Source: a virus
Taxonomy: Duplodnaviria; Caudoviricetes
Direction: 5' to 3' (one strand)
Virus record (IMG/VR): IMGVR_UViG_3300027863_000173
Location: 1 to 24,673 of that record
Length of the DNA stretch: 24,673 bases
Shown here piece by piece: positions 1 to 21,881 of the stretch. The first letter of the stretch is position 1, and every line of letters begins with the position of its first letter. A program made the position numbers and the translations under genes. The notes under the pieces are model-generated. The model saw only the letters and a program-made list of their open reading frames with translations, was not told the origin of the DNA and did no database searches.

Positions 1-132
1 CTAACACCGTGTATAAAACATGGTGGGTTTTCTGCGTTATTTAAAGTTTCATTCATTCTATTAAGTTATTTATAGTTTGATAGTTATGTGGTTTCTATCC
101 CACCACGTTTCATACACAACACGTTATATGCT
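1..132 (+). repeat. attC-like imperfect inverted repeat A (left end cut by window edge)
   Basis: Left arm CTAAC-ACC-GTGTAT-AAAACA-TGGTGGG (1-27) pairs with right arm CCCACCA-CGTTTC-ATACAC-AACAC-GTTAT (99-127). TAAC...GTTA ends as in the R''/R' boxes of attC sites. Confidence 0.8.
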
Positions 133-412
133 ACTTTAAAGACCGCCATAAACCAACATTTTCGATAATTGTTTTGTCTGTCGTATCTATCCAGTTCGTG
201 CCATTCCAATAACCAATACAGTATTGATATTTTGTAAATGGAGTTCGAACTAACACTGCCTTATTAGTTTCTGGAAGTTCATCGTTAGCAGAAATAAAAT
301 TAATCCTATCCAATAACTGCCTTTCCAGCCAGTTTTCATAAGTTTCAATTTCTCCGGTTCCATCGTCTGTAGATGTTCCGTTGTACATGTTTATTAAAGA
401 TTCTCTGTCCAT
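131..412 (-). CDS. phage hypothetical protein with DUF551-like C-terminus (cassette 1 cargo)
   Basis: Start moved to ATG 412 (MDRESL), 1 nt after the upstream stop at 414. C-terminus ISANDELPETNKAVLV...GYWNGTNW...NVGLWRSL follows the DUF551-type pattern. Confidence 0.65.
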   Translation of the reverse strand: MDRESLINMYNGTSTDDGTGEIETYENWLERQLLDRINFISANDELPETNKAVLVRTPFTKYQYCIGYWNGTNWIDTTDKTIIENVGLWRSLK

Positions 413-413
413 A

Positions 414-704
414 TTAATTTTGTTTTTCGTTAAAAATAAATTCGGGTACAAATACACGGTAATCGTGAAAGTTTGTAAAAAAGTCTATTTTAGTCCAAAC
501 AGTCCAGTTAATTACTTCGTTAAGCTCATTGCATCGCCTTGTTATTACTTCATATTCGGTAGTGTCGACAATTTGGTATAATTCTAAATCATTCCGAGCG
601 GAAGTATAATAATCGCCTGGCTTTATTTTCCATTCTAAATGGCTATAATACTTAAGAGATAAGGCTAATAGTTTTTGCTCAGGTGTTAGTGATATTCTTT
701 CCAT
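414..704 (-). CDS. phage hypothetical protein (cassette 1 cargo)
   Basis: 96-aa ORF (MERISLTPEQKL) in a tightly packed co-directional run. Confidence 0.7.
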   Translation of the reverse strand: MERISLTPEQKLLALSLKYYSHLEWKIKPGDYYTSARNDLELYQIVDTTEYEVITRRCNELNEVINWTVWTKIDFFTNFHDYRVFVPEFIFNEKQN

Positions 705-966
705 GTTCAATACTTTTAAATTTCGATCCTTTTACACAGTTATTTATACAATACATTCCAGATTCGGTTCCTTGCCTATTGTATAAGCATTCTTGGCATT
801 TATCTACAACCTCCTTATATTCACCTAATACAGTATCTATTTTACCGTAAAGTTGAATTACTATTCCAATTGTAGGCAAAAAGAAAATGTAAATACGTCT
901 TTTCTTTTGATCGTAGAATACGCCTACCCATATGTCGTACCAAGCAAATATTAATTTTATCTTCAT
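679..966 (-). CDS. phage hypothetical protein, Cys-rich C-terminus (cassette 1 cargo)
   Basis: MKIKLIFAWYDIWVGVFYD...IYIFFLP N-terminus, a pattern I recognise from small phage proteins; CQEC...CINNC at the C-terminus. Start 966 lies 4 nt after the upstream stop. Confidence 0.7.
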   Translation of the reverse strand: MKIKLIFAWYDIWVGVFYDQKKRRIYIFFLPTIGIVIQLYGKIDTVLGEYKEVVDKCQECLYNRQGTESGMYCINNCVKGSKFKSIEHGKNITNT

Positions 967-970
967 AGCT

Positions 971-1108
971 TTACAGTTTACCAAATCCAATTACTTCTTT
1001 ATGTCCACAATTAGGGCAATATCCAACTGTTGCACCTAATTCTTCATCATAATACACATCCATGTAGTATAATTTCTTTCCACTTACTGAACATTTATAA
1101 CATTCCAT
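971..1108 (-). CDS. small zinc-ribbon protein (cassette 1 cargo)
   Basis: 45 aa, MECYKC...YCPNCGH, two CxxC pairs. Start set to ATG 1108 because the longer ORF-track version runs into repeat B. Confidence 0.6.
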   Translation of the reverse strand: MECYKCSVSGKKLYYMDVYYDEELGATVGYCPNCGHKEVIGFGKL

Positions 1109-1140
1109 ATATTTAGTTTTAATTATTTGGCTTAATAAAA

Positions 1141-1245
1141 GCAGCATATAACACCGTATATAAAACATGGCTTGATGAGTTCGTGCCAACTTGAAACATT
1201 CGAGCAAAGCCACGTTTCATATACGAAACGTTAGCGGTAATTGCC
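1141..1245 (+). repeat. attC-like imperfect inverted repeat B
   Basis: GCATATAAC-AC-CGTATAT-AAAACA-TGGCTT ... AAGCCA-CGTTTC-ATATACG-AAAC-GTTAGCGGT. Arms closely resemble repeat A, with compensatory GTGTAT/ATACAC vs GTATAT/ATATAC. Confidence 0.85.
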
Positions 1246-1536
1246 TGAAATCCAATCGTAGCAATCCATCCACCCGCTATAATATGCATCACTATCATTG
1301 TTCCTACAAACAAGTCTAAAGTTAAACCCATCAACCGTTGCCCTCTTAAACCCCTCGCTCACAGCTTCATCTTTTGACGGCAACATACCGCTAACATCGT
1401 GTATATTGCATTTTTTTACTTCATCCAGTGCTTCGTATATAAGGCTGAGAACACTCGAATCTTTATAACCTAATCTTTTATATAATCCGTTAAGTTCTGT
1501 AGCGGCCATTTCTAAAGCTTTTTGTACTTGTTCCAT
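1231..1536 (-). CDS. phage hypothetical protein overlapping repeat C (cassette 2 cargo)
   Basis: 101-aa ORF with ATG 1536. Reads through the left arm of repeat C (CNIHDVSGML); its stop TAA is the TTA of the repeat B GTTA core. Confidence 0.7.
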   Translation of the reverse strand: MEQVQKALEMAATELNGLYKRLGYKDSSVLSLIYEALDEVKKCNIHDVSGMLPSKDEAVSEGFKRATVDGFNFRLVCRNNDSDAYYSGWMDCYDWISGNYR

Positions 1537-1603
1537 ATTAAAGGTTTTGTGTTAATAATCCGTAAAAAACCGACAACATACACTTCTCGTTATGGGCAAC
1601 CGT
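1379..1603 (+). repeat. attC-like imperfect inverted repeat C with long central region
   Basis: TACCGCTAAC-ATC-GTGTAT-A-TTG (1386-1408) pairs with CAA-C-ATACAC-TTCTC-GTTATGGGC (1574-1597). Same arm geometry as A and B but about 165 nt between arms. Confidence 0.75.
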
Positions 1604-1643
1604 AAGACCGCTCCGAAGAAACAGTCTTACGAACCCAAAAACT

Positions 1644-1955
1644 TTAGTCGCACATGAAATAATTCCAGTTACCTGGTTCATTTCCTTGTGGTGCAGATGT
1701 AACCCAAAATTGGTCGCAGCCATCTAAAAAAACCTGACCATTTACGCAGGTATCGCTCCAAATACCTACAATAACCATCGGTAAAATTTGCCCTTCTCTG
1801 GCTTCATTGCCTATGTGCGCCTGTGCGCCAGTTGGCCAAATTTTTTCTTTAATTCTCTCTGCAATTGATTGAGAGTTAGTTCTACGTCTGTTAATCTGAG
1901 CGGCATTTTCTGCGCTCAATTTGTAATTAACAATTAAATTGTTTGATATTGGCAT
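1644..1955 (-). CDS. conserved phage hypothetical protein (cassette 3 cargo)
   Basis: 103 aa; VNYKLSAENAAQINRRR...PMVIVGIW...VNGQVFLDG...WVTS...PGNW resembles a family of small phage proteins of unknown function. Confidence 0.75.
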   Translation of the reverse strand: MPISNNLIVNYKLSAENAAQINRRRTNSQSIAERIKEKIWPTGAQAHIGNEAREGQILPMVIVGIWSDTCVNGQVFLDGCDQFWVTSAPQGNEPGNWNYFMCD

Positions 1956-2001
1956 AATATTTATGGATTTTACAAAGCCCGTCCAAGGCTATATTTTAAA
2001 A

Positions 2002-2150
2002 ACGGCAGCCCATAACAACGGCTCATACCCAATTGGGGTTTAAGTGGTTGTTTAATGTGCGTAGCCCGTTCGTTCATTCGTGCATTTTGATAATGTTGTT
2101 CTTCGCAGTCCCCAACTGGGCATAGCCGCAGCCGTTAGTAGCAAGCAGTA
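2002..2150 (+). repeat. attC-like imperfect inverted repeat D
   Basis: GCCCATAAC-AA-CGGCT-C-AT-A-CCCA-A-TTGGGG ... CCCCAA-C-TGGG-C-AT-AGCCG-CAGCC-GTTAGTAGC. Arm sequence differs from A-C but the architecture is the same, with one unpaired base. Confidence 0.8.
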
Positions 2151-2494
2151 CTGCATCGCTTCGAATAGACAAAATCTACCTGTTCTTTAAAACTTGGTAT
2201 AACAAAATCTTTACTTTCATAAAGTTCGTTATCCAGCTTAATCCAAATTTGCCTAAATTCTTCGGTAATATATTCGTAAAAGTCCTCACCTGTTACACCT
2301 TCATCTCCTTCCATATTAAGTTCACTAACAAGTTCAGCGCATTTCAAATGGTTTTTCCAAACGTAAATATTATCGTACTTTAATGTTTGCGTGTGATATA
2401 TTTCTCCCACAGGGATGGTGCAACCACACCAATTACAAACATGAGCTTTTCGTGCCTTTACTTTTTTTGTATCGTTAATTATTTCAATTCCCAT
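2135..2494 (-). CDS. phage hypothetical protein, putative Zn-binding (cassette 4 cargo)
   Basis: KARKAHVCNWCGCTIPVGEIY...HLKC pattern; stop TAA is the TTA of the repeat D GTTA core. Confidence 0.75.
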   Translation of the reverse strand: MGIEIINDTKKVKARKAHVCNWCGCTIPVGEIYHTQTLKYDNIYVWKNHLKCAELVSELNMEGDEGVTGEDFYEYITEEFRQIWIKLDNELYESKDFVIPSFKEQVDFVYSKRCSTACY

Positions 2495-2536
2495 TACTAA
2501 AATATTTAATGATTAATTATTCAATTAAGTTACTGC

Positions 2537-2866
2537 CTAATTTACCGTGCCAGCAGCCCAGAAAGTAAGCATTTCCGTTTCTGGCAAAAGCGGATCAGTT
2601 GTGAAACTAAAGAACAAACCATGTTTCTGAAGTTCCCCAAGGTTTTTATCCAATTCCTTCGAAAATATCTCAAATGCATCCGTTTCGTTTTTGAAGCATT
2701 TCTTCAGCTGTGGTTTATCCTGCCCCATAACCGGTGCAAAGATTCCCTTCTTGCAATAACAGTATTCACAACCGTTGCTGCAACCAACATAAAAGTTGCA
2801 GGCCCAATAACTGTATTCGCCAGCTTTGCCGGAGGGATTATAAATTACTTTCCCGTGGTAACTCAT
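2537..2866 (-). pseudogene. radical SAM protein, apparently C-terminally truncated
   Basis: GCSNGCEYCYC (CxxxCxxC) and FSFTTDP motifs, but only 109 aa, too short for a radical SAM barrel. Ends at the edge of the cassette array. Confidence 0.65.
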
Positions 2867-3063
2867 ATCGTATTTTTAAATTTATTATTACTATTGATAC
2901 TTTTTCTCCTATCTGAAAAATGACCAACACTGTCAATTACAGACTTTTTACTTTCAGGTCTCTTCCGTAACCTACATTTAGGACAAACAAGCCAAATTGA
3001 TACTTGTCCAAGTTTTTTGGATTCACTTATTAATGGTTCTATACAATTTGGGCAGTATTCCAT
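2863..3063 (-). CDS. small zinc-finger protein
   Basis: YCPNC...VCPKC; ATGA overlap with the next gene at 2863-2866. Confidence 0.65.
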   Translation of the reverse strand: MEYCPNCIEPLISESKKLGQVSIWLVCPKCRLRKRPESKKSVIDSVGHFSDRRKSINSNNKFKNTI

Positions 3064-3095
3064 GTATTAATTTTCTCGTAATATTAGCACAATAT

Positions 3096-3434
3096 TTACA
3101 ATTCACAAAGAGAAAAACCATATTTTTTTTGAATCTCAATCATTTGATTTCTAAACTTTTTATCAGTTTCAATCAAATTTTTTACCGTTTTAACGGCATG
3201 TAAAACAGTTCCGTGATCTTTTCCTCCAATAATATTTCCAATACTTTCAAGGCTTTTACCTGTTTGTCCTTTTGCAAAAAACATCGCAATTTGCCGAACT
3301 TGTACAATTTCACGTTTACGGGTTTCAGAGTTCATTAGTTCTAAAGATATATTGTAAAATTGCGATATATTTTTTTGAATGGTTATAATAGGATTTTCGC
3401 GCTCCAAAATCCCTGGGGCTATCATGTAGTTCAT
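3096..3434 (-). CDS. stand-alone DnaA C-terminal (domain IV) DNA-binding protein
   Basis: RKREIVQVRQIAMFFAK...SLESIGNIIGGKDHGTVLHAVKTV matches the Bac_DnaA_C signature; no AAA+ domain. Confidence 0.85.
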   Translation of the reverse strand: MNYMIAPGILERENPIITIQKNISQFYNISLELMNSETRKREIVQVRQIAMFFAKGQTGKSLESIGNIIGGKDHGTVLHAVKTVKNLIETDKKFRNQMIEIQKKYGFSLCEL

Positions 3435-3446
3435 TTTTTGTAAAGT

Positions 3447-3995
3447 TTAATGGTTCCACATTTTAAATCTTACAATATTCCCAATTTGAGCATCAGAAAT
3501 ATTATATTCTTTTGATAATTTTAACTTTGTATAATTCCCTGTTTTAAATTTATCTCTTATTTCATTAACTATTTTATTAGTTAATTTACATTTAGGATTT
3601 TTTTCACCTTTTAATCCAATTCTAAGCCCAGTTCTAAAAGCATGTTTCATATTTTCAGAATGCGTACTCCATTCTAAAACACACGCTCTATTATCCGATT
3701 TGTCTCCAAATAAATGATTAACTTCAGGTAGATTTAATGGATTAGGAATAAAATGAAGCGCAACTTGCCTATTTATTCTTAAATGTTTTTTTAAACAATC
3801 TATTTGCAAAATAACAAATAAATAATCACTAGAATCAATTAAAGGCTTTAATATTGTTTCAGGTTTTATGTATCCTTTATTTTTACCATTTTTTCGGTAT
3901 CTTTCTAAACTTTTAACCCTTCCCAAATTACTAACTTGATACAATCCCTCATATCCTTTAATATCTTTCCAAATTTCCTCTTCAATAATTTCCAT
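3447..3995 (-). CDS. NUMOD4/HNH homing endonuclease
   Basis: EIWKDIKGYEGLYQVSNLGRVKS (NUMOD4); FIPNPLNLPEVNH...DNRACVLEWSTHSENMKHA (HNH); C-terminal HTH. Confidence 0.9.
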   Translation of the reverse strand: MEIIEEEIWKDIKGYEGLYQVSNLGRVKSLERYRKNGKNKGYIKPETILKPLIDSSDYLFVILQIDCLKKHLRINRQVALHFIPNPLNLPEVNHLFGDKSDNRACVLEWSTHSENMKHAFRTGLRIGLKGEKNPKCKLTNKIVNEIRDKFKTGNYTKLKLSKEYNISDAQIGNIVRFKMWNH

Positions 3996-4096
3996 GATTC
4001 CAGATTTAAAATGATACCAGAAGAAAAGAATAGGGAAAGGCTCTGGTTACCCTTATCATCCGGTTAATTAGGCCGAACTATCCCATTGCAAAGATA
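3996..4096 (-). promoter_or_regulatory. promoter plus structured 5' leader, copy 1
   Basis: TATCTTTG (-7 element-like, 4096-4089) followed by a leader of about 90 nt that is highly similar to 6118-6217. Confidence 0.65.
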
Positions 4097-4097
4097 A

Positions 4098-5622
4098 TTA
4101 TTTTTTATAAATTTTTATTTGATGTTCAAACCACGAATGGTGAAAACCATGTTTTTTAGCATAGTCTTTGAGCCCTTTTTCACCCCAATTAAGATAAACT
4201 TGTCGATGTACAAATCCTTTTTTATAACCTCGTTGTTTCGCATATTCATCCAATTCTTCAAAAGTCATCTTTGAAAAGTTCAATTTCTGAGGGATATGCT
4301 GAGCATAGTTTATCTCTACCAATTCAGTTATTTTTTCTTCCTTCGTTTTTTCGAAAATAAATCCACAATATTTACAAAACCTTGCCGAAGCAATTACCAA
4401 AGCCTGACATTTTGGGCATGTTTTAACGCTTGCGATGCCTTCATTTTTCGAAATGGCATGGGTAAGGGACCATTCGCGTTGCTGTCGGTAATGCCCAAGC
4501 CTGTCAGCATTACAACCAAAATCCAAAATGTAAAAAAACTTCTTATCAGTTTCGGGAGATGGCCGGGAGCCGCGGCCCAAAATCTGAAGCCATTTATTTA
4601 CGGATGTCGTCGAAAGATTAACGATAACCGTTTCAATTGGTTTATGATCAAATCCCTCCACAAATATGCCGGCATTTATAAGGACATCAAACTCTCTGTT
4701 TTTCCACTGTCGAATAATTTCTTCCCGTGGGCCTGAATATAAATCATAAGCAGCATTGTAATTCTCAAATTCTTTAAGCTTTCGTTCATAAAGAATTTTG
4801 CCCGAAATCCCTTCGCCTTGAATTGGCTTTGCAACATCAGAAGTCACGAATTTAGCCTTTATTCCAGCTTCATTAAATGCTTTGGCAGTCTCAATACAAT
4901 GTTGAATATTAACACAAAAACAAATTGTAATTGTATTCGGGCAAATTCGCTTCCAATTGTCAATTACACCGGAATAAAGTTCAGTCTTATTGTATTTTGA
5001 AAAAAGTTGATTCGAGTCAAATTCTCCATCATTACCAATTCCAACATCTGATATATCAACCTGGACGCCAAAATAACGATCAGGCATCAATCTTCCCATG
5101 TTAACGAGATCTTGGGTATCGGGTCCGCAAACCATCCGATCATATTCCGATGATAACTGAGGCATTTTACCGGATCGTTTCGGGCTGGCCGTAACACCAA
5201 GTTTGAAACAATCGACTTTTATCCAACTAAAATCTGACCTATGGCATTCGTCGATTATAATTAAATCCAATTTTGAAAACCAGTCTTTCCATATCTCATG
5301 CTTTAACCTATTCTTTAAAGTCATTACCATAGCCACAGAAACAGGTGCGTCTTGAGGTTTTTTTGTTTCGGGAGTGATAAGTATAGGCTTTATTCCAAAT
5401 TGTTCAAGAGTGCCTCCGGATTGGCTTAAAAGTTCAATTCTGTGAGATAAGATAAGGATGCGTTTGTTTCGTTTAGAGCTTTCGGCAGCGATAAAGGAAA
5501 AAATAACGGTTTTACTAACCGCTCCCTGTCGGAGAGCATACCAAAACTTTTTTGATATTTTCTGCGAACAGGGAGCGAACTTCATTAATTATTTTTTGCT
5601 GATAGTTGTAAAGCTTGATCAT
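4098..5622 (-). pseudogene. SF2 DEAD/DEAH-box helicase with C-terminal Zn finger, reading frame split by a 4-nt insertion
   Basis: ATG 5622 overlaps the upstream stop (ATGA) and gives MIKLYNYQQ...CSPTGSG*. The other frame continues KTVIF, IIIDECH, TASPKR, EGFD, QILGRGSR, CPKC/CKYC. Removing TAGT (5517-5514) restores PTGSGKT. Functional status unknown. Confidence 0.8.
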
Positions 5623-6116
5623 TTATACCTTTTAAAATTAACAATTCTACAAATGGAGGCTCGACTTGAATTATATTGTCGAGCCAAGTCTTTCTGTAAT
5701 TCTCCATTTTTATGCCTTTCTCTAATTTCAATAATTTGATTAGGAGTCATATTAGTATTGTAACAATCACAGCCTTTTCTAGTTTTAACTAGATTTAACA
5801 TATATGCATGCATTGCATTTTCTTTTCTAGTACTCCATTCTAAAACACACGCTCTATTGTCTAATTTATTACCAAACATATGATTTATCTCTGGTTTATT
5901 TTCAGGATTTGGAATAAAATGTATCCCAACTAATCTATGGACTGGATATTTCTTGGCTTTCCCTTTTTTACTTAAAATAGTAGATAAATATCTATTTCTC
6001 ATAAATAATTTTAAGATAGTAACTTTATTATTAAAAAAGCTTCTAATTCTACCTAAGTCACTAATTTGATACAATCCTTCATACCCAATTATATCTTTCC
6101 AAATTTCATTTTCCAT
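5619..6116 (-). CDS. NUMOD4/HNH homing endonuclease
   Basis: EIWKDIIGYEGLYQISDLGRIRS; VHRLV...FIPNPENKPEINH...DNRACVLEWSTRKENAMHA. Paralogue of 3447-3995. Confidence 0.9.
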   Translation of the reverse strand: MENEIWKDIIGYEGLYQISDLGRIRSFFNNKVTILKLFMRNRYLSTILSKKGKAKKYPVHRLVGIHFIPNPENKPEINHMFGNKLDNRACVLEWSTRKENAMHAYMLNLVKTRKGCDCYNTNMTPNQIIEIRERHKNGELQKDLARQYNSSRASICRIVNFKRYK

Positions 6117-6117
6117 T

Positions 6118-6217
6118 GATTCCAGATTTAAATGATACCAGAAGAAAAGTGAAGGGAAAGGCTCTGGTTTACCCTTGTCATTCGGTCATGACTCCGAACT
6201 ATCCCAATGCAAATATA
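6118..6217 (-). promoter_or_regulatory. promoter plus structured 5' leader, copy 2
   Basis: TATATTTG (6217-6210) followed by a leader homologous to 3996-4096. Confidence 0.65.
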
Positions 6218-6221
6218 TAAT

Positions 6222-6593
6222 TTAAAAAGGTAAATCCCCTCCCGTCTCATCATTATAAACCGGCGCAGGTGCCGAATTATCTTCCCTCTGAAAATTCTTA
6301 AAATTACCAATGATAGGAAGATTTTTAAAGTCTTCCTTTTGGGCATCAGTAGCAGCTTTATAAGTTTTTGAATCAACTTTTTGAGCTATAAAACCATCTT
6401 GCCCAAATTTATCTGGTTCATCATGCACCACAATATCAATAGGAACAGCTATACGATTATCAAGGAACTCATGAAGCTTATTTGCTTCGATAGGAATAAA
6501 TATACCACGTATCATCCCTGATTTACCTTTTTTTTCAAGGATAACACATTGTAATTTTGTCAATTCTATTTGACCTGAAAATTTTTCTTTCAT
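6222..6593 (-). CDS. putative single-stranded DNA-binding protein
   Basis: 123 aa, acidic C-terminal tail DETGGDLPF typical of SSBs; follows annealase and exonuclease genes. Confidence 0.6.
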   Translation of the reverse strand: MKEKFSGQIELTKLQCVILEKKGKSGMIRGIFIPIEANKLHEFLDNRIAVPIDIVVHDEPDKFGQDGFIAQKVDSKTYKAATDAQKEDFKNLPIIGNFKNFQREDNSAPAPVYNDETGGDLPF

Positions 6594-6594
6594 G

Positions 6595-7383
6595 TTACAA
6601 GTTATTTACGTTTTTAATAATAGAAATATCATTCTTTTCCAAAGCTAGGTCAATAACCTGGTTAGCCTTTTCAATTCGTGCCCGAAGCCGAGCGAGATTA
6701 AATTTGTGATCCATTTTTACAACCCTGACAATATGCATCTTTAACGGATCATCTTCTTTGCTCCGGGGGTCATAAGATACGAAATCGCACCATTCGGCCT
6801 GATCGTCTAAAAGATGCCCAAGGAATTGCCAATAGTAGTCATCTTTTTCAGATATGGCGGTAATGGTGCAATAATCGTAATGAATTGCACCGCTTTCGGG
6901 GCATTTGATTTCAGCCCGGCCAATACCATCTAAAGTTATTCCGTCGGGAGAATCCCCAAAGTTTTCAAAAGGCTCCACAAAAACGATATCATCAAAATCA
7001 AATGAACCAGATCGCATGTCAATACCGGTTTTGTTTTTGTAAAACTCCAAAGCTTCAGGTTCATATTGTTTGCCCCATTCCAATGCCTTAACACCTTTCA
7101 ATGAAGGCCGCTCTATTCCGGTACGGCGTTCGTGGGCAACTTCAAACATAGTTGTAATAGCAGTTTGCCCCCACTCTTCGCCTTTTGCCCGGCCTGACTT
7201 CATTAGATTGGGGAGTTTCGAAGCTGTAATTTTCCCTATCCTTTTTTGCTTCCACCTATCCTCCCTTGCCAACCATTCTGCCTCAATTCCCATAGGTTTA
7301 GCAAGTATCTCAGTTCGGGCTTCAATGGATTCGAAAAGCTTTTCGAGGCCAGACTTATCTGGCTTTAATGCATCTTCGATCAT
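6595..7383 (-). CDS. YqaJ/lambda exonuclease family protein
   Basis: WKQKRIGKITAS, LEWGKQYEPEA, SPDG, EIKCP, YYWQ, WCDFVSYDPR motifs. Confidence 0.9.
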   Translation of the reverse strand: MIEDALKPDKSGLEKLFESIEARTEILAKPMGIEAEWLAREDRWKQKRIGKITASKLPNLMKSGRAKGEEWGQTAITTMFEVAHERRTGIERPSLKGVKALEWGKQYEPEALEFYKNKTGIDMRSGSFDFDDIVFVEPFENFGDSPDGITLDGIGRAEIKCPESGAIHYDYCTITAISEKDDYYWQFLGHLLDDQAEWCDFVSYDPRSKEDDPLKMHIVRVVKMDHKFNLARLRARIEKANQVIDLALEKNDISIIKNVNNL

Positions 7384-7940
7384 ACGCCTTGCGTTTTAAG
7401 TATTTCCAACAACCCCTTAACATGATCCTTGTACTCAACTTGCTCATTCAAATGTGAATTTTGTTTTACGATTTGCATGAGGAGGGCGGTTGATTCGTTG
7501 ATACCGTTGATGTAATTGGTAAGCTGATCACCCGTATAAAGAATCTGGCCTTTGGCGGTTTTGGCGTATTTGCCTTCAGCGGAATCTAGGGTTTTTGTAC
7601 CGATAAAATAAAGATCTCGGCCAATGCCCCAAAGAACTGCCGCGCGCTTAAAAGCATCTGAGGCTTTACCTTTAATCTTTTCGACATTGGATTCGGTGCC
7701 TACGTCAGATTTCCAAATCCATTCTTCGTCAATCTTAATACCAATACTAGCAACCCCAGATTCAGCATCATAAGTATTTTGCCAGTTTGCCCGACCAACG
7801 ACAATATCGAGTCGTTCATGAACTGCGCGGGCATCCAAATACGGAACACATACCGCTTTATTCCCTTTTACTGATTGAATTCGCCATCTCGGTTCGATGG
7901 GTTCTGAAAGTGCCGTTAAATCAATTGTTTTTGTTTCCAT
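7380..7940 (-). CDS. Rad52/Sak-family single-strand annealing protein
   Basis: YLDARAVHERLD...WQNTY...KSDVG...KGKASDAFKRAAVLWGIGRDLY. Confidence 0.88.
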   Translation of the reverse strand: METKTIDLTALSEPIEPRWRIQSVKGNKAVCVPYLDARAVHERLDIVVGRANWQNTYDAESGVASIGIKIDEEWIWKSDVGTESNVEKIKGKASDAFKRAAVLWGIGRDLYFIGTKTLDSAEGKYAKTAKGQILYTGDQLTNYINGINESTALLMQIVKQNSHLNEQVEYKDHVKGLLEILKTQGV

Positions 7941-7969
7941 CTATTCTGGTTTTTAAAATTAAGTTCTGT

Positions 7970-7999
7970 AAACAAAGCCCCGGCAATAATACCGGGGCT
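7970..7999 (-). terminator. intrinsic terminator-like hairpin
   Basis: AGCCCCGG (7976-7983) / CCGGGGCT (7992-7999), followed on the minus strand by TTGTTT. Confidence 0.65.
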
Positions 8000-8041
8000 G
8001 TCCCTCTCTACCAACTACTAGCCGAAGATGGTCGGCACCGT

Positions 8042-8176
8042 TTATGATTTAAACCTATCATCCTCCGGGTTTTTAAATTCCCTGTATTCAACCGGTTTTT
8101 TGTTTTTCCCAAAAATACAAGCAAATACAAATAATGCTATAAAGCCAATGATAAGGATGTAGTCTGTTGTATTCAT
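8042..8176 (-). CDS. 44-aa single-pass membrane peptide (not in ORF track)
   Basis: MNTTDYILIIGFIALFVFACIFGKNKKPVEYREFKNPEDDRFKS*; hydrophobic helix then basic residues; fills the gap after the ATPase gene. Confidence 0.6.
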   Translation of the reverse strand: MNTTDYILIIGFIALFVFACIFGKNKKPVEYREFKNPEDDRFKS

Positions 8177-8191
8177 TTTGTAAATATACGG

Positions 8192-9898
8192 TTATTTTTG
8201 CAACAATTCCCCATTTTCAATCAAAAATTGTCCCGGTTCCAAACCTTCTATTGTAAAGTCACCGGTAACACCGACAACAATTGTCAGATTATACTTTTCC
8301 TGAATTTGCAAAAGAAGATCGCGGGTCTTTTTGTCAATAGGACATTCGATCCACATAAGGCGAAGTCCGTCTTCGTTTTTCTTTAGCTTTTCTTCCAAAA
8401 GATATATTTGCATCAAAATAGCGATAATAGGACGCTGTGTCTGGCTGTATTGCGTTAACAAACGATCCTCCTTCTTTGTATTGCCAAAGAACTCAGGATT
8501 ATGAACACCATTGTACATTGTTCGAATCTCTGATTTTTCCTCGTCGCCTACAATCTGAATGGACAGTCCCGGAACGCCCAAATCAATCTTTGAATACATT
8601 TCGCAATATTCGCGCCAAATTGATTTTACCAGTTCATCAGATTCTTGCCAATCGTAAAAGGCAGACCAGCGCTCAGCTATTTTATTGGAAATACGGGCAT
8701 GGTTAATGATAGCATCATAATCATTAGCCGATTGATCGTCGATATATTCGGGAAGTTCTTCTTTGGATAGGGATTCTTTTTGAGACCAGATGGGAATAAG
8801 TTTTTCCCTCAAAAGTTTGATATCTTGAAGGTGCAACCAGGTATCTTCATCGACTTTATCAAGATAATATTCTGTAAATGCAATAGGGTTTATTTTCCCA
8901 TTTTCATCGAAAGGGATAACTTCAAATTCAGGCTCCTTCATTTCGTCCACCCATTTCTTCACATCTGCAAAATTTGGATAACCCAATCTTTCGAGAATAA
9001 AATAAGCCTCATTTGCCTCTGCGAGCTTATTGGCAAAATTTTCTTTAGCATTACCGATATTGTCATTGTATGAAACCAATTTCGCCGTAAGGATCGAAGC
9101 TTTTGCGGTAATTTCGTTAATCTGCTTTTGAAGTTCGTCTTTCTTCTTTCCTTGCATCTCATACCAATCCTTTTGCCACTTATCCTTTCTGCCTTGCAGT
9201 TCAGCGGCGGCGGTTGCCTTCTTAATTTCCAAGGCTTGAATGTCAATCAAGGCCGGCACATTTGTTTCATTCAATCCTTCAGCGTCAAAAGCCTCTTTAA
9301 AAGCATTTAGGCCCCGGCGAATAATATGTTTGTTTTGTCGGTCCATTTTAGCCTGTTCGAGTCGCCAAAGAATAGAATTCACATAGGCAGGGCTTTTGGT
9401 GTCAAAAATTACACCCATTTCTTTAAGCTTATGCGAATAAATTTTCATCATAAACTCAAGGTGAGTGCGAGGGTTTTCGGAAAGGAAATCGTCAATACCA
9501 AATGTTAAATCAGTACGAAGCGCATCCCGGAGGGCGGCGGCGGTAAGTTTCTTCCCTTGGATAACCGGGTCACGGGCAATCTTACCTTCGCTGTCTTTTA
9601 CGTAGGCCACAGATGTAACGTCGCCGTTTTTGGCCGTGTAGGTGCGAAGGTAAACAGGCATGTCACCGTATGTCAACTTGACTTCAACATCTATGTTTTT
9701 AAACTTCGATGTGTCAAAGGGTAACATCTGTTGATTACCAGATGAGATAGCCGTTTCCGTGGCTTGCTTTAAGGTAGTTTTACCGGCTCCGACATTGGCC
9801 CTAACTTCGATGAGGTTGCCTGTTTCGACAAATTCAACGGTTTGGGCTTTTAAAATGCCGAAAGAGTTGTTTAGGGAGAGAGAGATTAGTTTGCTCAT
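8192..9898 (-). CDS. SMC/Rad50-like coiled-coil ATPase
   Basis: N-terminal Walker A ANVGAGKTT, long central coiled coil, C-terminal signature-like YSQTQR and degenerate Walker B LMWIECPID. Confidence 0.75.
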   Translation of the reverse strand: MSKLISLSLNNSFGILKAQTVEFVETGNLIEVRANVGAGKTTLKQATETAISSGNQQMLPFDTSKFKNIDVEVKLTYGDMPVYLRTYTAKNGDVTSVAYVKDSEGKIARDPVIQGKKLTAAALRDALRTDLTFGIDDFLSENPRTHLEFMMKIYSHKLKEMGVIFDTKSPAYVNSILWRLEQAKMDRQNKHIIRRGLNAFKEAFDAEGLNETNVPALIDIQALEIKKATAAAELQGRKDKWQKDWYEMQGKKKDELQKQINEITAKASILTAKLVSYNDNIGNAKENFANKLAEANEAYFILERLGYPNFADVKKWVDEMKEPEFEVIPFDENGKINPIAFTEYYLDKVDEDTWLHLQDIKLLREKLIPIWSQKESLSKEELPEYIDDQSANDYDAIINHARISNKIAERWSAFYDWQESDELVKSIWREYCEMYSKIDLGVPGLSIQIVGDEEKSEIRTMYNGVHNPEFFGNTKKEDRLLTQYSQTQRPIIAILMQIYLLEEKLKKNEDGLRLMWIECPIDKKTRDLLLQIQEKYNLTIVVGVTGDFTIEGLEPGQFLIENGELLQK

Positions 9899-9942
9899 AA
9901 AATTTTAAATATTAATTTCCTGTAAAATTAATACTATTTTTA

Positions 9943-10299
9943 CTAAACACAAACTTTTTTCAAGAAATTTTCAATTAATTTTATTGTACCGTCGGAAACA
10001 GGCTGTAAGTTAATGACATTGAATATTGTTTTCGGAGAAACCCCAATGGATTCCGAAAGTTTTTCAATACTTGTTTTGGATGATTGTTTGTATTCAATTA
10101 ACTTGTTTACGGTCACTTCTGGATCGTTTAAGTTATCCAGAAAGTAATCAATAGTCATTTCGGTACGCCGGGAAACTTCTTTGCAATCCAGCACTTTAAT
10201 TAAAGTACTGTCTGAAATACCTATATTTTTTGAAAGTCGATCTTTGCTCCAGCCAGATTCCTGAAGTTTTTTGAGTTCTGCAAGTCGTTTATATGCCAT
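9943..10299 (-). CDS. tandem XRE-like helix-turn-helix protein
   Basis: Two similar HTH units (SKDRLSKNIGISDSTLIKVL; SIEKLSESIGVSPKTIFNVI). Start set to ATG 10299, just downstream of a promoter motif. Confidence 0.75.
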   Translation of the reverse strand: MAYKRLAELKKLQESGWSKDRLSKNIGISDSTLIKVLDCKEVSRRTEMTIDYFLDNLNDPEVTVNKLIEYKQSSKTSIEKLSESIGVSPKTIFNVINLQPVSDGTIKLIENFLKKVCV

Positions 10300-10318
10300 A
10301 ATTTTGAGATATTTTAGG

Positions 10319-10341
10319 CAAATATAATACTTTTTTTGCAA
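10319..10341 (-). promoter_or_regulatory. Bacteroidota-type promoter, 23-bp direct repeat copy 1
   Basis: TTGCAAAAAAAGTATTATATTTG contains TAnnTTTG; identical to 10462-10484. Confidence 0.75.
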
Positions 10342-10342
10342 T

Positions 10343-10372
10343 AAAAAAGCCTATCGCATGACGATAGGCTTT
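10343..10372 (-). terminator. intrinsic terminator
   Basis: AAAGCCTATCG-catga-CGATAGGCTTT perfect stem; T6 tract on the minus strand. Confidence 0.8.
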
Positions 10373-10461
10373 CATTTCATTTTTTTTAATTACTACTGTT
10401 TTAGTTTTTCATGGCTACATGAATTAGTTTGTTTTTAAACAAAATTGTTTACAAGCAAGAA

Positions 10462-10484
10462 CAAATATAATACTTTTTTTGCAA
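10462..10484 (-). promoter_or_regulatory. Bacteroidota-type promoter, 23-bp direct repeat copy 2
   Basis: Identical to 10319-10341. Confidence 0.75.
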
Positions 10485-10487
10485 AAC

Positions 10488-10521
10488 AAAAAAGGCCACG
10501 ATATCACATCGGAGCCTTTTT
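10488..10521 (-). terminator. intrinsic terminator closing the late operon (possibly bidirectional)
   Basis: AAAAAGGC...CGAT-atcac-ATCG...GCCTTTTT with T tracts on both strands. Confidence 0.75.
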
Positions 10522-10568
10522 CGCTAACTAACATTTACAACTACTAACTATTTATTAACCACCTAAAC

Positions 10569-10757
10569 CTATTCATTTTTATAAGTTAAACCAGTTATAG
10601 CCCCCAATGCAGAAACTGCAATAATAGCCGGCATATACCAGTATCTATTAACAAAGCTATCGCCGCTTAATAGGTCCCTTGTTTCAATTCGCAGAAAGAC
10701 AAATAACAAAATTGCGGCAATACAAATTATAAGTGAAATTATTCCTAGTATTTTCAT
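10569..10757 (-). CDS. small two-helix membrane protein
   Basis: Two hydrophobic segments; ATGA overlap with the upstream gene. Confidence 0.65.
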   Translation of the reverse strand: MKILGIISLIICIAAILLFVFLRIETRDLLSGDSFVNRYWYMPAIIAVSALGAITGLTYKNE

Positions 10758-11113
10758 TTTGTGACTTTTAAACGTTCACCACATGCAATCATAGTCTGAC
10801 GAACCAAGCGAGATTGAATTATACAACCTAAAGAAGCCTCTCCAGGATGTTCCCGGTCGTCTCCGTGACATAAAAACTGAGACCTTCCATACATCTCATT
10901 TTCAGGATCGGGAATTAAAGGTATGGAATAATCCCCAGTATGATCTGAATTAAAAGGCTTGCCCAATTGATAATTTCCCTCTGGAATAGGGCCAACATTT
11001 TTAACCGATTGCATCTCGGGGTTATTTTTGCCCACCCCATGCCCGGAATACCCTTGGCCTAAAATTTCACCGTTATCCTTTTTTAGAATTCCTGTTGATT
11101 GGCTGTATATCAT
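10754..11113 (-). CDS. Tlde1/DUF2778-like L,D-transpeptidase-fold peptidoglycan enzyme
   Basis: GYSGHG...NNP...GPIPEGNY...GRSQFLCHGD...ASLGCII, with His and SxGC catalytic-type motif. Confidence 0.8.
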   Translation of the reverse strand: MIYSQSTGILKKDNGEILGQGYSGHGVGKNNPEMQSVKNVGPIPEGNYQLGKPFNSDHTGDYSIPLIPDPENEMYGRSQFLCHGDDREHPGEASLGCIIQSRLVRQTMIACGERLKVTK

Positions 11114-13347: not shown

Positions 13348-15394
13348 TTTTAGTTTTATATTTTACAATTTTACCTTTATATTTTAAAGACTTAGATATT
13401 AACGAAACTGGCGCAGGATTGTAATCCACAAGTAATATAGCTGACGAATACGGCTGCAAAGTAATATTTGACGCATATTTTGTCGATTTAACATCAATCA
13501 TAGGCACCGGCAATGATATTGATTTTGTGTTTGATGTCTCATTATAATAAAAATACTCATCGTTTACGGTTGTGACCGTTTGAGGTGTTCCCAAAGTATG
13601 AATATCTTTCCCTGAGAATCCTTTCCATTGTGCTATGTTTTTTAACCAATTTGGGAAAGCAGCATTAACAAAAACAACAGTAGTTTGAGCGTATGGTCGG
13701 GCGTAATAATTAGAATCGGCCCAAAATGCTGCCCTATACTTAGTAGTATCTGAAAAGTATAAATAAAAACATTTCTGATAATCAAACGAGCCAGATCCGT
13801 TTGTTTTAGCAACTAAAATATTGTTTACTATCGTGTCATGCGTTGGAATAAATTTTTTGCTACCAAAATATTGATAGGATAATCCGTTTTCAGAGTTGTT
13901 GAAACATTTATTCCAGCGAACTTTATTATATCCTGCTGATGTAATATAAAGTCCAGATCCTGCATTATTGGAACATGAATTATAAGCTACGTTTATACTG
14001 CCGGTTCCCTGATCAAGATATATCCCATGTCCATGATGAACAAATGTAGAACCTTCAACGGCCCCGATTCCATTTAAACATACATTGCTAAATATTCGGC
14101 CATAATGGAAAGCTGTAGAAGTATCTGAATATAAATATATGCCACCTCCGTCATCTAGTACCTGGCAGAATGTATCAACATAATTATACTGTATATGGAT
14201 AGTATCCGAGGCCCAACATGATATACCATTAAAACCTACGTTAGTAATCTTATTATTCCAAACCGTCCATTTGCTCACATTCCCACAGTCTATTGTTCCA
14301 TTTGCCATCGTGTAAGTCTTATTATTGCGCATCCCGTGGAATAACCCTATTTTAGTCACCGTGTTATTTAAAATAGAATCGTTGGCACCAAATGAGGTTT
14401 CGCAGGCGGTTGTATTAATGTCGCTGAATAAACATCCGCTTACAGTAAGGTAATTAATCAACACGTAAATACCAGTTACCCCGTTTTGATTAAAATTGCA
14501 ATTCGTAACCTTAACATGGTTATACCTGGGCGAGTGATCCCAGCAGTATAACGCATTACTATTCGCTCCGGTAAACTGTAGGTTCTTAAAAACAAGATAA
14601 TTTGAATTAATGGTAATAAGATTTTCAACCGTCGAAAGTTTTACATTTGAAGGCTGGGTGGTACTATATATTCGTACCTTTCCAGTCGAAGCATTGTAAA
14701 ACCACTCGTTTTGCTGCGTACAGCAGCGAATATCGTTCTGAAAAAAGAACCCATTACCATTGCTCATACTTTCGCCAATACTCCCAAAATTAATGGTTGA
14801 TCCAGATTGTGAAGTTACAAACGACCGTTTTAAGTGAAATGCCTGGCTTCGTATTACAACCTCTGCATCGGTCCAATTTGGAGTCCCGGTTAGGTCTGAA
14901 CTGGTGAGTGAAGTATATCCGGATGATGTTTGAAAAGTATAATACCCTTTATTCGCCGCAGTAACCTTAGGATAACGCCCCATTGGAGTATTCACCCCGC
15001 CAATGGTAAGCATATTACAAAACGTTAGAGCAGATACCGCACTGGTACTTTCCCAAATATTACTGCCCATATCTGTCCATCCACTCACAGTTGAGAATCC
15101 GGTAATAATTGGATTGGCACCTGTGCCGTAAGCGGCGAATACAATAGAATTGGTTGAATTACCTGACCAGGTTGTCGTAAACGAACCGTAAAACGTATCA
15201 CCACGCCGGAAAAGGATAGAATCACCGGCCACGAATGAGCCTGAATTCACCTTGGACAACGTCGCCCAGGGTGTTGCGGTACTGGTTCCGTTATTCGAAT
15301 CAGATCCGGCATTGCTCACATAATAGTTCATTGCCGAAACCCCAATACTATAAAGTAGTACGGCAATGAATAAAAGTTTTTTTAGTAAGGCCAT
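13331..15394 (-). CDS. right-handed parallel beta-helix (pectin lyase-like) protein with signal peptide; candidate depolymerase
   Basis: YYVSNAGSDSNNGTS...PWATLSKVN...GDSILFRRGDTF N-terminus; DGGGIY, GIYLD and repeated N-x-C-x-NN beta-helix turns. Confidence 0.85.
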   Translation of the reverse strand: MALLKKLLFIAVLLYSIGVSAMNYYVSNAGSDSNNGTSTATPWATLSKVNSGSFVAGDSILFRRGDTFYGSFTTTWSGNSTNSIVFAAYGTGANPIITGFSTVSGWTDMGSNIWESTSAVSALTFCNMLTIGGVNTPMGRYPKVTAANKGYYTFQTSSGYTSLTSSDLTGTPNWTDAEVVIRSQAFHLKRSFVTSQSGSTINFGSIGESMSNGNGFFFQNDIRCCTQQNEWFYNASTGKVRIYSTTQPSNVKLSTVENLITINSNYLVFKNLQFTGANSNALYCWDHSPRYNHVKVTNCNFNQNGVTGIYVLINYLTVSGCLFSDINTTACETSFGANDSILNNTVTKIGLFHGMRNNKTYTMANGTIDCGNVSKWTVWNNKITNVGFNGISCWASDTIHIQYNYVDTFCQVLDDGGGIYLYSDTSTAFHYGRIFSNVCLNGIGAVEGSTFVHHGHGIYLDQGTGSINVAYNSCSNNAGSGLYITSAGYNKVRWNKCFNNSENGLSYQYFGSKKFIPTHDTIVNNILVAKTNGSGSFDYQKCFYLYFSDTTKYRAAFWADSNYYARPYAQTTVVFVNAAFPNWLKNIAQWKGFSGKDIHTLGTPQTVTTVNDEYFYYNETSNTKSISLPVPMIDVKSTKYASNITLQPYSSAILLVDYNPAPVSLISKSLKYKGKIVKYKTKNVKYK

Positions 15395-21173: not shown

Positions 21174-21881
21174 TTATTTATTAAGTCTATTTAACTTAAA
21201 GGTATTGGTTCTTTTTTCAATTGTTTCTTTGCTAAGTTTTCTACCCTTCGTCCATGTATTTAATCCCTTATGTGATTCGCTTACTTTTCTGCGTGTTTCT
21301 TCGGAATATTTTTTACCTTTTTTGGACAAAGACATTTTTTCTAAAGTTTCTTGTGAATAACAATTTTTCATTCCTTTATTCCAAGCGATTTGACCTTTAT
21401 GAGCATCACTTAATTTTTTTATTTGTATATCTGTCATTTTTTTACCTTTCATTCCAGATACTCTATTTCTTGATGCTTCCCCTATTTTTTTGCGCGTTTC
21501 TTCAGAATGGTTTTTCCCTTTTATCCAAGTAGTCTTACCCTTATGAGATTCACTTAGTTTTAATTTTGTTTTAAAAGAAGCTTTTCGTCCTAAAGTACTC
21601 CCAGCTATTTTACAAATATTAAACCAAGGATTAAGCGAGTCTATATAGAATTGTTCGAAAGCAATTAATGTTTCCTGAGAACATTCAATTATAACCGAAA
21701 ATTCTAAATCAGATTCACCATATTTGTTATAATGTCGCTGAAGTCTTTGATTGCCATGTTTATTATTTTTTAAGTCAGTTAAATGATAAGACCACCGTTT
21801 CTTTATATTTATGGCACTTCCAATATAAATTTTATCAGATTTAATCTTTGACTGTATTTTATATATTCCTGTTTTAGACAT
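21174..21881 (-). CDS. GIY-YIG homing endonuclease with NUMOD3 repeats
   Basis: TGIYKI...IYIGSA...KRW..H...EQFYID...FN; repeated HSEETRKKI / SESHKG units. Confidence 0.92.
   Translation of the reverse strand: MSKTGIYKIQSKIKSDKIYIGSAINIKKRWSYHLTDLKNNKHGNQRLQRHYNKYGESDLEFSVIIECSQETLIAFEQFYIDSLNPWFNICKIAGSTLGRKASFKTKLKLSESHKGKTTWIKGKNHSEETRKKIGEASRNRVSGMKGKKMTDIQIKKLSDAHKGQIAWNKGMKNCYSQETLEKMSLSKKGKKYSEETRRKVSESHKGLNTWTKGRKLSKETIEKRTNTFKLNRLNK

Follow-up and report, generated by a model that had tools for sequence, protein, structure and literature searches.

A probable integron-like cassette array with inverted cargo genes in a putative Bacteroidota phage

The viral contig IMGVR_UViG_3300027863_000173 (Duplodnaviria; Caudoviricetes), analysed over its whole length of 24,673 nucleotides (the window), probably carries at its left end a phage array of gene cassettes, of which this is the distal part; hairpins resembling the attC sites of integrons separate its inverted cargo genes, and the units are likely moved by a short phage recombinase that is predicted to act on the minus strand. 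Comparison with related sequences supports the reading of the plus strand as the top strand, with the cargo genes inverted, because the orientation of genes in host arrays, the natural junctions between units, and the polarity of an attI-like half-site agree. The system is integron-like: judged from sequence, it is not an integron by the tests of integron integrase (IntI) and gene orientation, yet it appears to work like one.

The window is a linear contig, estimated to be 18% complete, with baseplate-like genes at its right and an unbroken run of minus-strand genes from 11113 to 131 that includes recombination, helicase, HNH, and DnaA-like genes. The distribution of the hairpin family suggests that the host of this phage belongs to the Bacteroidota.

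Hairpins and Strand Bias

A finder for TAAC...GTTA hairpins, run on the whole window, identified four attC-like sites (A to D; Table 1) with scores of 12–17, all within positions 1–2137 and none elsewhere in the 24.7 kb; none of ten simulated sequences (first-order Markov) contained a site scoring at least 11. Inverted AAC and GTT cores close an imperfect palindrome in each, as in attC. Explicit pairing of the stems on the plus strand gives eight A·C mismatches and no G·T, at 15/111 and 20/106 in A, 1162/1218 and 1167/1213 in B, 1405/1577 and 1409/1573 (the latter where the stem ends) in C, and 2027/2121 and 2032/2116 in D. The original prediction, made from the sequence alone, had described this one-sided bias correctly, apart from assigning C a single mismatch in place of two; the left arm of D has in addition an unpaired C at 2024 (a G on the bottom strand). 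No extrahelical base occurs in A, B, or C, and the extra base of D recurs in related sites of loci L166 and L317. The asymmetric spacers that had also been reported (2–3 nt on the left, 4–5 nt on the right) measure 3/5, 2/4, 3/5, and 2/5 nt in A to D.

The folding check proposed with the prediction favours the minus strand at all four sites. As DNA, its energies (in kcal/mol, minus versus plus) are −13.7 versus −11.3 for A, −14.3 versus −11.3 for B, −16.8 versus −9.7 for C, and −19.6 versus −15.1 for D, with z-scores for A, B, and D of −2.4, −3.6, and −2.5 versus −1.6, −2.5, and −1.1; minus-strand RNA likewise folds better throughout. The bottom strand is thus the richer in G·T pairs and the lower in folding energy, as in attC sites. 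Since sites A and B are related to each other, the eight mismatches do not count as independent, and the strand bias rests on family-wide counts. With mismatches oriented by spacer length alone, viral sites show 920 A·C versus 98 G·T (532 sites) and genome sites 274 versus 20 (154 sites); for attC sites, the accessible text of one study gives 1.24 versus 0.39 G:T pairs on the bottom and top strands (Nivina 2016, PMC5027507). Sites 92–96% identical to A occur in five other viral contigs, and sites similar to C in L054, L271, and L273.

Gene Orientation in Host and Phage Arrays

A search pattern with the plus polarity of the window retrieved at least 123 loci in genome contigs, with 122 distinct sites. 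Among the matches listed, the left neighbour within 250 nt is sense at 97 and antisense at 10 of these 122 host sites, the antisense cases with long flanks being phage-like contigs; in viral contigs, at 110 sites of identical polarity, it is sense at 7 and antisense at 90. Counted per whole unit, the viral sample of 459 comprises 409 antisense units, 4 sense units (which resemble spurious frames opposite real genes), and 46 without an open reading frame (ORF), and the genome loci comprise 68 sense, 19 antisense, and 18 without an ORF (105 units); 14 of these 19 fall in four phage-like loci, leaving 68 versus 5. The first host and viral patterns differed in loop length (30–60 versus 50–80 nt), a difference controlled by length class and by recombinase-anchored samples. 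Among sites of 101–140 nt, genome neighbours are sense in 18 cases and antisense in 9, and viral neighbours sense in 5 and antisense in 107. Host arrays are therefore sense and phage arrays antisense, and the original assignment of the plus strand as the top strand is upheld by this opposition and by junctions at the right-arm G/TT. A Saprospiraceae genome (L013, L015, L023, and L068) contains many units of about 500 nt, 82–99% alike, that lie between short sites and apparently hold no real ORF.

Natural Junctions and Unit Boundaries

Window 123–1233, from the G of the right core of A to the right core of B, is 100% identical in another phage (L166), with different DNA on both sides; two contigs of independent metagenome studies (X4 and X5) carry the same span. 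Junctions fall at 122/123 in L166, X4, X5, X6, X8, and X9, with further left neighbours in X4 and X8, and at 1233 in L166, X4, and X9. In X2 and X3 the right arm of another site precedes 1588, and 1588–2857 and 1588–3200 are contiguous, continuing through D. Right-hand ends of homology, compared between loci, coincide with GTT in the two sequences in 32 cases and with AAC in four, so that natural junctions place the crossover at the G/TT of the right core, as in attC sites, with exceptions at AAC. As in gene cassettes, units occur in other contexts and their outer flanks are complementary (10 nt in cassettes 1 and 2, 9 nt in cassette 3); the flanks were dropped as a test of polarity, since they are complementary in either orientation. 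In L160, a 394-nt duplicate is bounded in the same way, one copy lying directly behind an attI-like site, and the copy of cassette 1 in L166 and X5 starts at a G/TT that lacks any att structure to its left.

A contig of run X1, which may be the source of the window, extends 515 nt to the left of window position 1. In this run two left neighbours branch off at window 122; their depths of 7.9 and 3.5 together come close to that of the main contig (11.8), which suggests that the array is mixed within one sample at this position, and such mixing may explain the contig end there.

The ends of cassette 3 (window 1589–1646 and 1953–2017; 92–100% identical stretches) consist of a 5′ leader up to the start codon and a 3′ end with a small hairpin, and they enclose three unrelated ORFs before different hairpins. 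Unrelated ORFs are so enclosed in L146 (copies at 7082–7128 and 7439–7492, as stored) and L166, and the ends also occur in runs X5 and X9. They look like a reusable expression frame, with a bearing on the making of cassettes, which to our knowledge is an open question. Copies of the cassette 3 gene, together with the untranslated ends (window 1603–2001), are found in L002–L005 with neither core nor hairpin nearby.

Recombinase and attI-like Site

Relatives of the array lie beside a tyrosine recombinase of about 268 aa, Xer/IntI-like, as seen in 80 viral loci that were picked with an alignment of six recombinase proteins and not dereplicated. An attI-like motif is present within 130 nt before its start codon in 62 of 73 viral loci, as against 38 of 3580 control windows; this half-site has a GTT core only, with plus polarity. 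The attC-like sites lie upstream of the phage recombinase in 50/52 cases and downstream in 3/77. The top strand of the array is antisense to the recombinase (244 versus 2, with 77 ties), and the array genes are co-directional with it (401 versus 18). At host loci the recombinase is found in 19 of 20 regions, with sites downstream in 10/19 and upstream in 1/19 and with genes sense (22 versus 0).

Archaeal XerA, the best family match, gives an unbroken alignment with the phage enzyme, and VchIntIA (2A3V) one that is split into two stretches; the enzymes tested also match the integron-integrase model TIGR02249 in two stretches, and two host enzymes pass NF040815. These alignments point to loss from the phage enzyme of the IntI-specific insertion near patch III, an insertion with a recognised role in IntI. 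In a quick tree, 20 of 21 phage enzymes fall on one side (Shimodaira–Hasegawa-like approximate likelihood ratio test, 94), but the phage rows had been chosen by mutual likeness and the tree is not relied on. In L359, attI and a recombinase of a different lineage adjoin an A-type site; more than one enzyme lineage may thus serve these arrays. In this region (3317–5125) the A-type site comes first beside the 289-aa recombinase, which sits on a long separate branch.

Cultured Phages

Matching recombinases occur in 23 records of cultured phages, and the genomes of ten isolates of the Polaribacter phage Freya range in length from 43,978 to 48,920 bp. The region upstream of the integrase was compared in six of them, L259, L260, and L342–L345 (Freya 10, 1, 5, 6, 8, and 9). 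Freya 1, 5, and 9 have attI joined to cores from right arms of the Freya 10 array; a 902-bp unit is missing from Freya 8, and Freya 6 carries at attI an additional unit of 472 bp. Whole cassettes at the attI-like site thus distinguish these isolates, whether the differences arose by gain or by loss. The word 'integron' is absent from the available text of the isolation paper, where the integrase is taken to indicate a temperate lifestyle (Bartlau 2021, PMC8776804).

Phage P12002L (L346, 29248–40949) has nine sites of plus polarity in its minus-strand early region and no annotated integrase. Its site P12002L_attC1 belongs to the family of the window, has the same bottom strand as in the call of Qi et al. 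2023, and precedes an antisense methyltransferase gene. P12002L is lytic, and several of its nine or more sites flank DNA methyltransferase genes; A-type sites also head methyltransferase-like ORFs in L357 and L359. A blastn search of window 1–2600 against cultured phages gave no match.

Genes of the Array

Table 1. Sites, units, and reading frames at the left end of the window
Feature	Position	Strand	Description
attC-like site A	2-126	+	125 nt; predicted crossover G123/T124; part of a unit running off the left end of the contig
attC-like site B	1149-1233	+	85 nt; predicted crossover G1230/T1231
attC-like site C	1392-1592	+	201 nt, coding loop; predicted crossover G1589/T1590
attC-like site D	2013-2137	+	125 nt, unpaired C at 2024; predicted crossover G2134/T2135
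Cassette 1	124-1230	+	Body with four antisense genes, then hairpin B
Cassette 2	1231-1589	+	165-nt body, then hairpin C
Cassette 3	1590-2134	+	Body with one antisense gene, then hairpin D
Probable cassette 4 remnant	2135-2541	+	Ends in degenerate core 2532-2541, without hairpin
ORF start, 18 codons	3-56	−	Eighth frame; begins in loop of A, runs through left arm and off the contig
ORF, 93 aa	131-412	−	Weak DUF551 match below cut-off
ORF, 96 aa	414-704	−	No family
ORF, 95 aa	679-966	−	No credible family
ORF, 45 aa	971-1108	−	Two CxxC pairs; in-frame upstream ATG at 1168 in left arm of B
ORF, 101 aa	1231-1536	−	Starts in loop of C, crosses left arm of C, stops in core of B
ORF, 103 aa	1644-1955	−	phrog_19300 (unknown function)
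Seventh cargo gene	2135-2494	−	phrog_7314; stop is core of D; own hairpin missing
Radical SAM gene	2537-2866	−	109 aa, cut exactly at degenerate core; weak Radical_SAM match

All seven cargo ORFs that the original prediction had called inverted are on the minus strand, although only six lie inside the three complete units, the seventh standing beyond the last hairpin without one of its own; an eighth frame can be added (Table 1). The genes of classical cassettes read on the top strand toward their own attC, and none of the six in complete units does so. The prediction was right that cores supply two stop codons: TTA at 1231–1233 and 2135–2137 gives the TAA stops of two cargo genes.

Leaders near-identical to the ORF start in A head three longer ORFs that continue differently in L357, L358, and L359. 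The DUF551 match (E = 0.00096; 20.4 bits against a cut-off of 22) is made by a longer frame, 131–457. Residues 44–101 of ORF 1231–1536 are 51% identical to a gene with the same layout in L252; matches of its start in L254 and L255 (E = 3–4e-4) were not accepted as evidence of chimerism, the displayed part of these loci having neither a site nor a matching ORF. In L258, the region upstream of the phrog_7314 gene leads into a normal left arm, at the place where the window lacks a hairpin. Relatives of the truncated Radical SAM gene have 265–302 aa in eight of the nine read out.

Reading frames commonly pass through the hairpins of phage arrays, which appear adapted to being read in this direction. 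An ATG in the loop, open through the arm and with the core read as Val, is present at 133 of 284 viral sites and 1 of 46 host sites (101–140 nt), and on the opposite strand at 19 of the 284 viral sites. Among 409 genes of viral units, 142 start in the loop and 94 stop in the core. The array genes face attI, so a cassette promoter (Pc) firing from the attI side could not express them. A sigma-70 promoter scan was at chance level (48 versus 39.5, standard deviation 6.8), and the Bacteroidota −7 motif, found 11 times on the minus strand in 1–10800, once with an upstream TTG, was not used. The leftward operon is preceded by two A/T-rich motifs, nearly identical and located at 10326 and 10469, that may be its promoters, and strong hairpins occupy intergenic gaps at 7976–7999 and 10346–10372.

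A Model and Its Alternatives

Under the model that we favour, a mobile unit starts at the G/TT of one hairpin and ends at that of the following hairpin on the plus strand, with its genes on the minus strand. The folded minus (bottom) strand is the predicted substrate of a short Xer/IntI-like recombinase that phages encode; by analogy with integrons, cutting at G/TT would release a circle, made up of a body and its right-hand hairpin, to be inserted at attI, and new units would enter at attI. The bias in A·C and G·T pairs, the asymmetric spacers, and the extra base would direct the choice to the bottom strand, just as they do at classical attC sites. To judge from orientation, and with no terminator-like site on the minus strand below 5505, the leftward early/replication operon would transcribe the cargo, hairpin and then gene, unit by unit, into the recombinase gene, with no need for Pc. 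Each hairpin would be the 5′ leader of its own cassette, the loop often providing a start codon; a stop would often come from the TTA with which the unit begins. The recombinase serving the array in the window would be encoded to the left of position 1 or else work in trans, and action in trans may apply to this phage specifically.

Were the minus strand the top strand instead, the orientation would be that of an ordinary integron, with genes ending at the TAAC inverse core and crossover at the left-arm AAC of the plus strand. Two genes do stop in TAAC on the minus strand, as classical cassette genes do, and a few homologies end at AAC (L001 with the window, L189/L232, and L019/L075). The original prediction had itself named left-arm AAC crossovers as what would speak against it, and these endings form a minority beside the junctions at the right-arm G/TT; right-hand ends of homology divide 32 to 4 in favour of GTT. 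The unit 123–1233 moves with its right hairpin and not with its left, the attI-like half-site has a GTT core only, with plus polarity, the Freya junctions lie at GTT, and host arrays combine the same hairpin polarity with sense genes; we consider this explanation extremely unlikely. Scarcely better placed, and still very unlikely, is the alternative that the prediction had offered, in which the bias reflects G-U pairs in mRNA and the hairpins are elements for RNA processing or stability. It fits the better folding, at all four sites, of minus-strand RNA, the mRNA strand in phages. In hosts, however, the mRNA is the A·C strand (97 versus 10; 68 versus 5), so the mismatch bias tracks DNA polarity and not transcription; cleavage of RNA at the arm would cut coding sequence, because 142 of 409 phage genes are translated through it; and DNA junctions lie at the cores and a search of Rfam gave no match for the hairpins. 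A secondary RNA role in phages may still attach to them.

A passive array, moved only by a recombinase of the host chromosome or through homologous recombination of hairpins that resemble one another, with the phage enzyme serving dimer resolution or lysogeny, is improbable, though it deserves more weight than the two preceding explanations. It would account for a contig with no recombinase, for the L166 unit at a junction with neither attC nor attI, for the nine plus-polarity sites of P12002L beside no annotated integrase, for the best family match of the enzymes to archaeal XerA, and for the temperate-lifestyle reading of the Freya integrase in the accessible text of Bartlau 2021. It is opposed by junctions that join unrelated hairpins exactly at G/TT (viral hairpins paired at random share 50% identity), by the location of the attI-like site and the array on one fixed side of the phage enzyme, and by the second integrase, of 398 codons, that phage Ingeline carries.

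Several observations weigh against the phage-driven, inverted array that we prefer. The window contig (0/1), 18% complete, holds no recombinase, and nine of nine enzymes tested miss the TIGR02249 cut-off (129–220 versus 265 bits). The available part of Cury 2016 concludes that enzymes of this kind, when found close to attC sites, do not belong to IntI, and because of this the system is not filed here as an integron proper. According to the accessible text of Qi et al. 2023 (PMC9892861), P12002L_attC1 did not recombine with IntI1. Three terminator-like sites on the minus strand lie upstream of the array (7999, 6275, and 5523) and bear on where its transcript would start. Loci were counted without dereplication by phage family, and a strict pair test (8 informative pairs, with 59 syntenic pairs set aside) found the right hairpin common in 5 of 7 pairs, as against 1 of 6 for the left, in a small sample of partly related phages. 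The body of cassette 3 is 92% identical in L001 but is joined to a different hairpin, the homology ending at AAC, and the pairs L189/L232 and L019/L075 also have different hairpins with homology ending at AAC. Changes of hairpin at the AAC side, swapped ORFs, and core-free gene copies go beyond simple excision and might reflect hairpin exchange or cassette creation.

Relation to Known Systems

Integrons are held to be nearly absent from the Bacteroidota, to need the IntI insertion, and to keep one gene orientation, since reversed cassettes are silent. The phage arrays share with classical integrons a tyrosine recombinase beside a single-core insertion site and divergent from the top strand, units bounded by G/TT, AAC/GTT hairpins with a G·T-rich bottom strand (and, in one subfamily of the window's family, an extra left-arm base), and the duplicate of a distal unit in first position. 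They differ in that the cargo is antisense to the top strand and reads in the same direction as the recombinase gene; no Pc is needed, the hairpin precedes the gene and often encodes its start, and several genes per unit are possible. The enzyme, of about 268 aa, scores below the TIGR02249 cut-off and apparently lacks the IntI insertion, and spacers are 2–3/4–5 nt, usually with no extra base.

The attC-like clusters described in phage genomes, including that of the Bacteroidota phage P12002L (Qi et al. 2023, PMC9892861), are the same kind of feature; the accessible text treats pieces of bacterial integrons and 17 attC-site clusters without an integron integrase (CALINs), attributes odd orientations to mosaicism, and mentions neither a recombinase nor an attI specific to phages, nor any systematic inversion. 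On Bacteroidota chromosomes, arrays next to XerA/IntI-like recombinases (NCBIfam NF040815) share hairpin family and polarity with the phage arrays and have a half-site resembling theirs and a related enzyme below the integron-integrase score. There, however, the enzyme is mostly 280–600 aa and lies upstream, the half-site follows the stop codon, the genes are sense, and many sites are short (about 60 nt) with loops free of start codons. Chromosomal cassettes are reportedly often anti-phage (10.1101/2024.07.02.601686). In Bacteroidetes proper, the part of the IntegronFinder 2.0 paper available names one complete integron only (PMC9024848). The junction of cassette 1 in L166 and X5 fits the GWT consensus of attG insertions (Loot et al., 10.1101/2022.09.11.507474), which the accessible text describes for IntI1-3 and bacterial chromosomes and not for phage DNA or a phage enzyme. 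We found no account of the phage system in the literature within view, which left out subscription journals and bioRxiv supplements.

A related system, with a simpler enzyme, would thus be common in Bacteroidota hosts and their phages, and the phages reverse the cargo almost always. It would account for the hypervariable early regions of Bacteroidota phages and would change the reading of small phage 'integrases', so far taken as markers of lysogeny. Freya and Polaribacter form a cultured pair in which strand choice without the IntI insertion and the making of cassettes could be studied. It is possible, as a tentative extension, that Bacteroidota phages run an integron lineage of their own, with a cassette pool kept apart from that of the host by polarity although the hairpins are common to both; cassettes caught across this barrier would land antisense and silent, the hairpin would be a portable start and the core a stop, and with unrelated ORFs exchanged inside a constant frame of cassette ends, the arrays would build new cassettes and chimeric proteins. 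If that is so, Freya on Polaribacter would reveal the creation and shuffling of cassettes by an enzyme without the IntI insertion.

Other Features of the Window

Two related NUMOD4-HNH genes (3447–3995 and 5619–6116; 79% identical stretches) lie on either side of a helicase gene (4098–5585), and a GIY-YIG/NUMOD3 endonuclease gene is located at 21174–21881. A tail-fibre-like ORF of 883 aa (15382–18033) contains an internal repeat (16374–16542 versus 17046–17208) with 69% identity.

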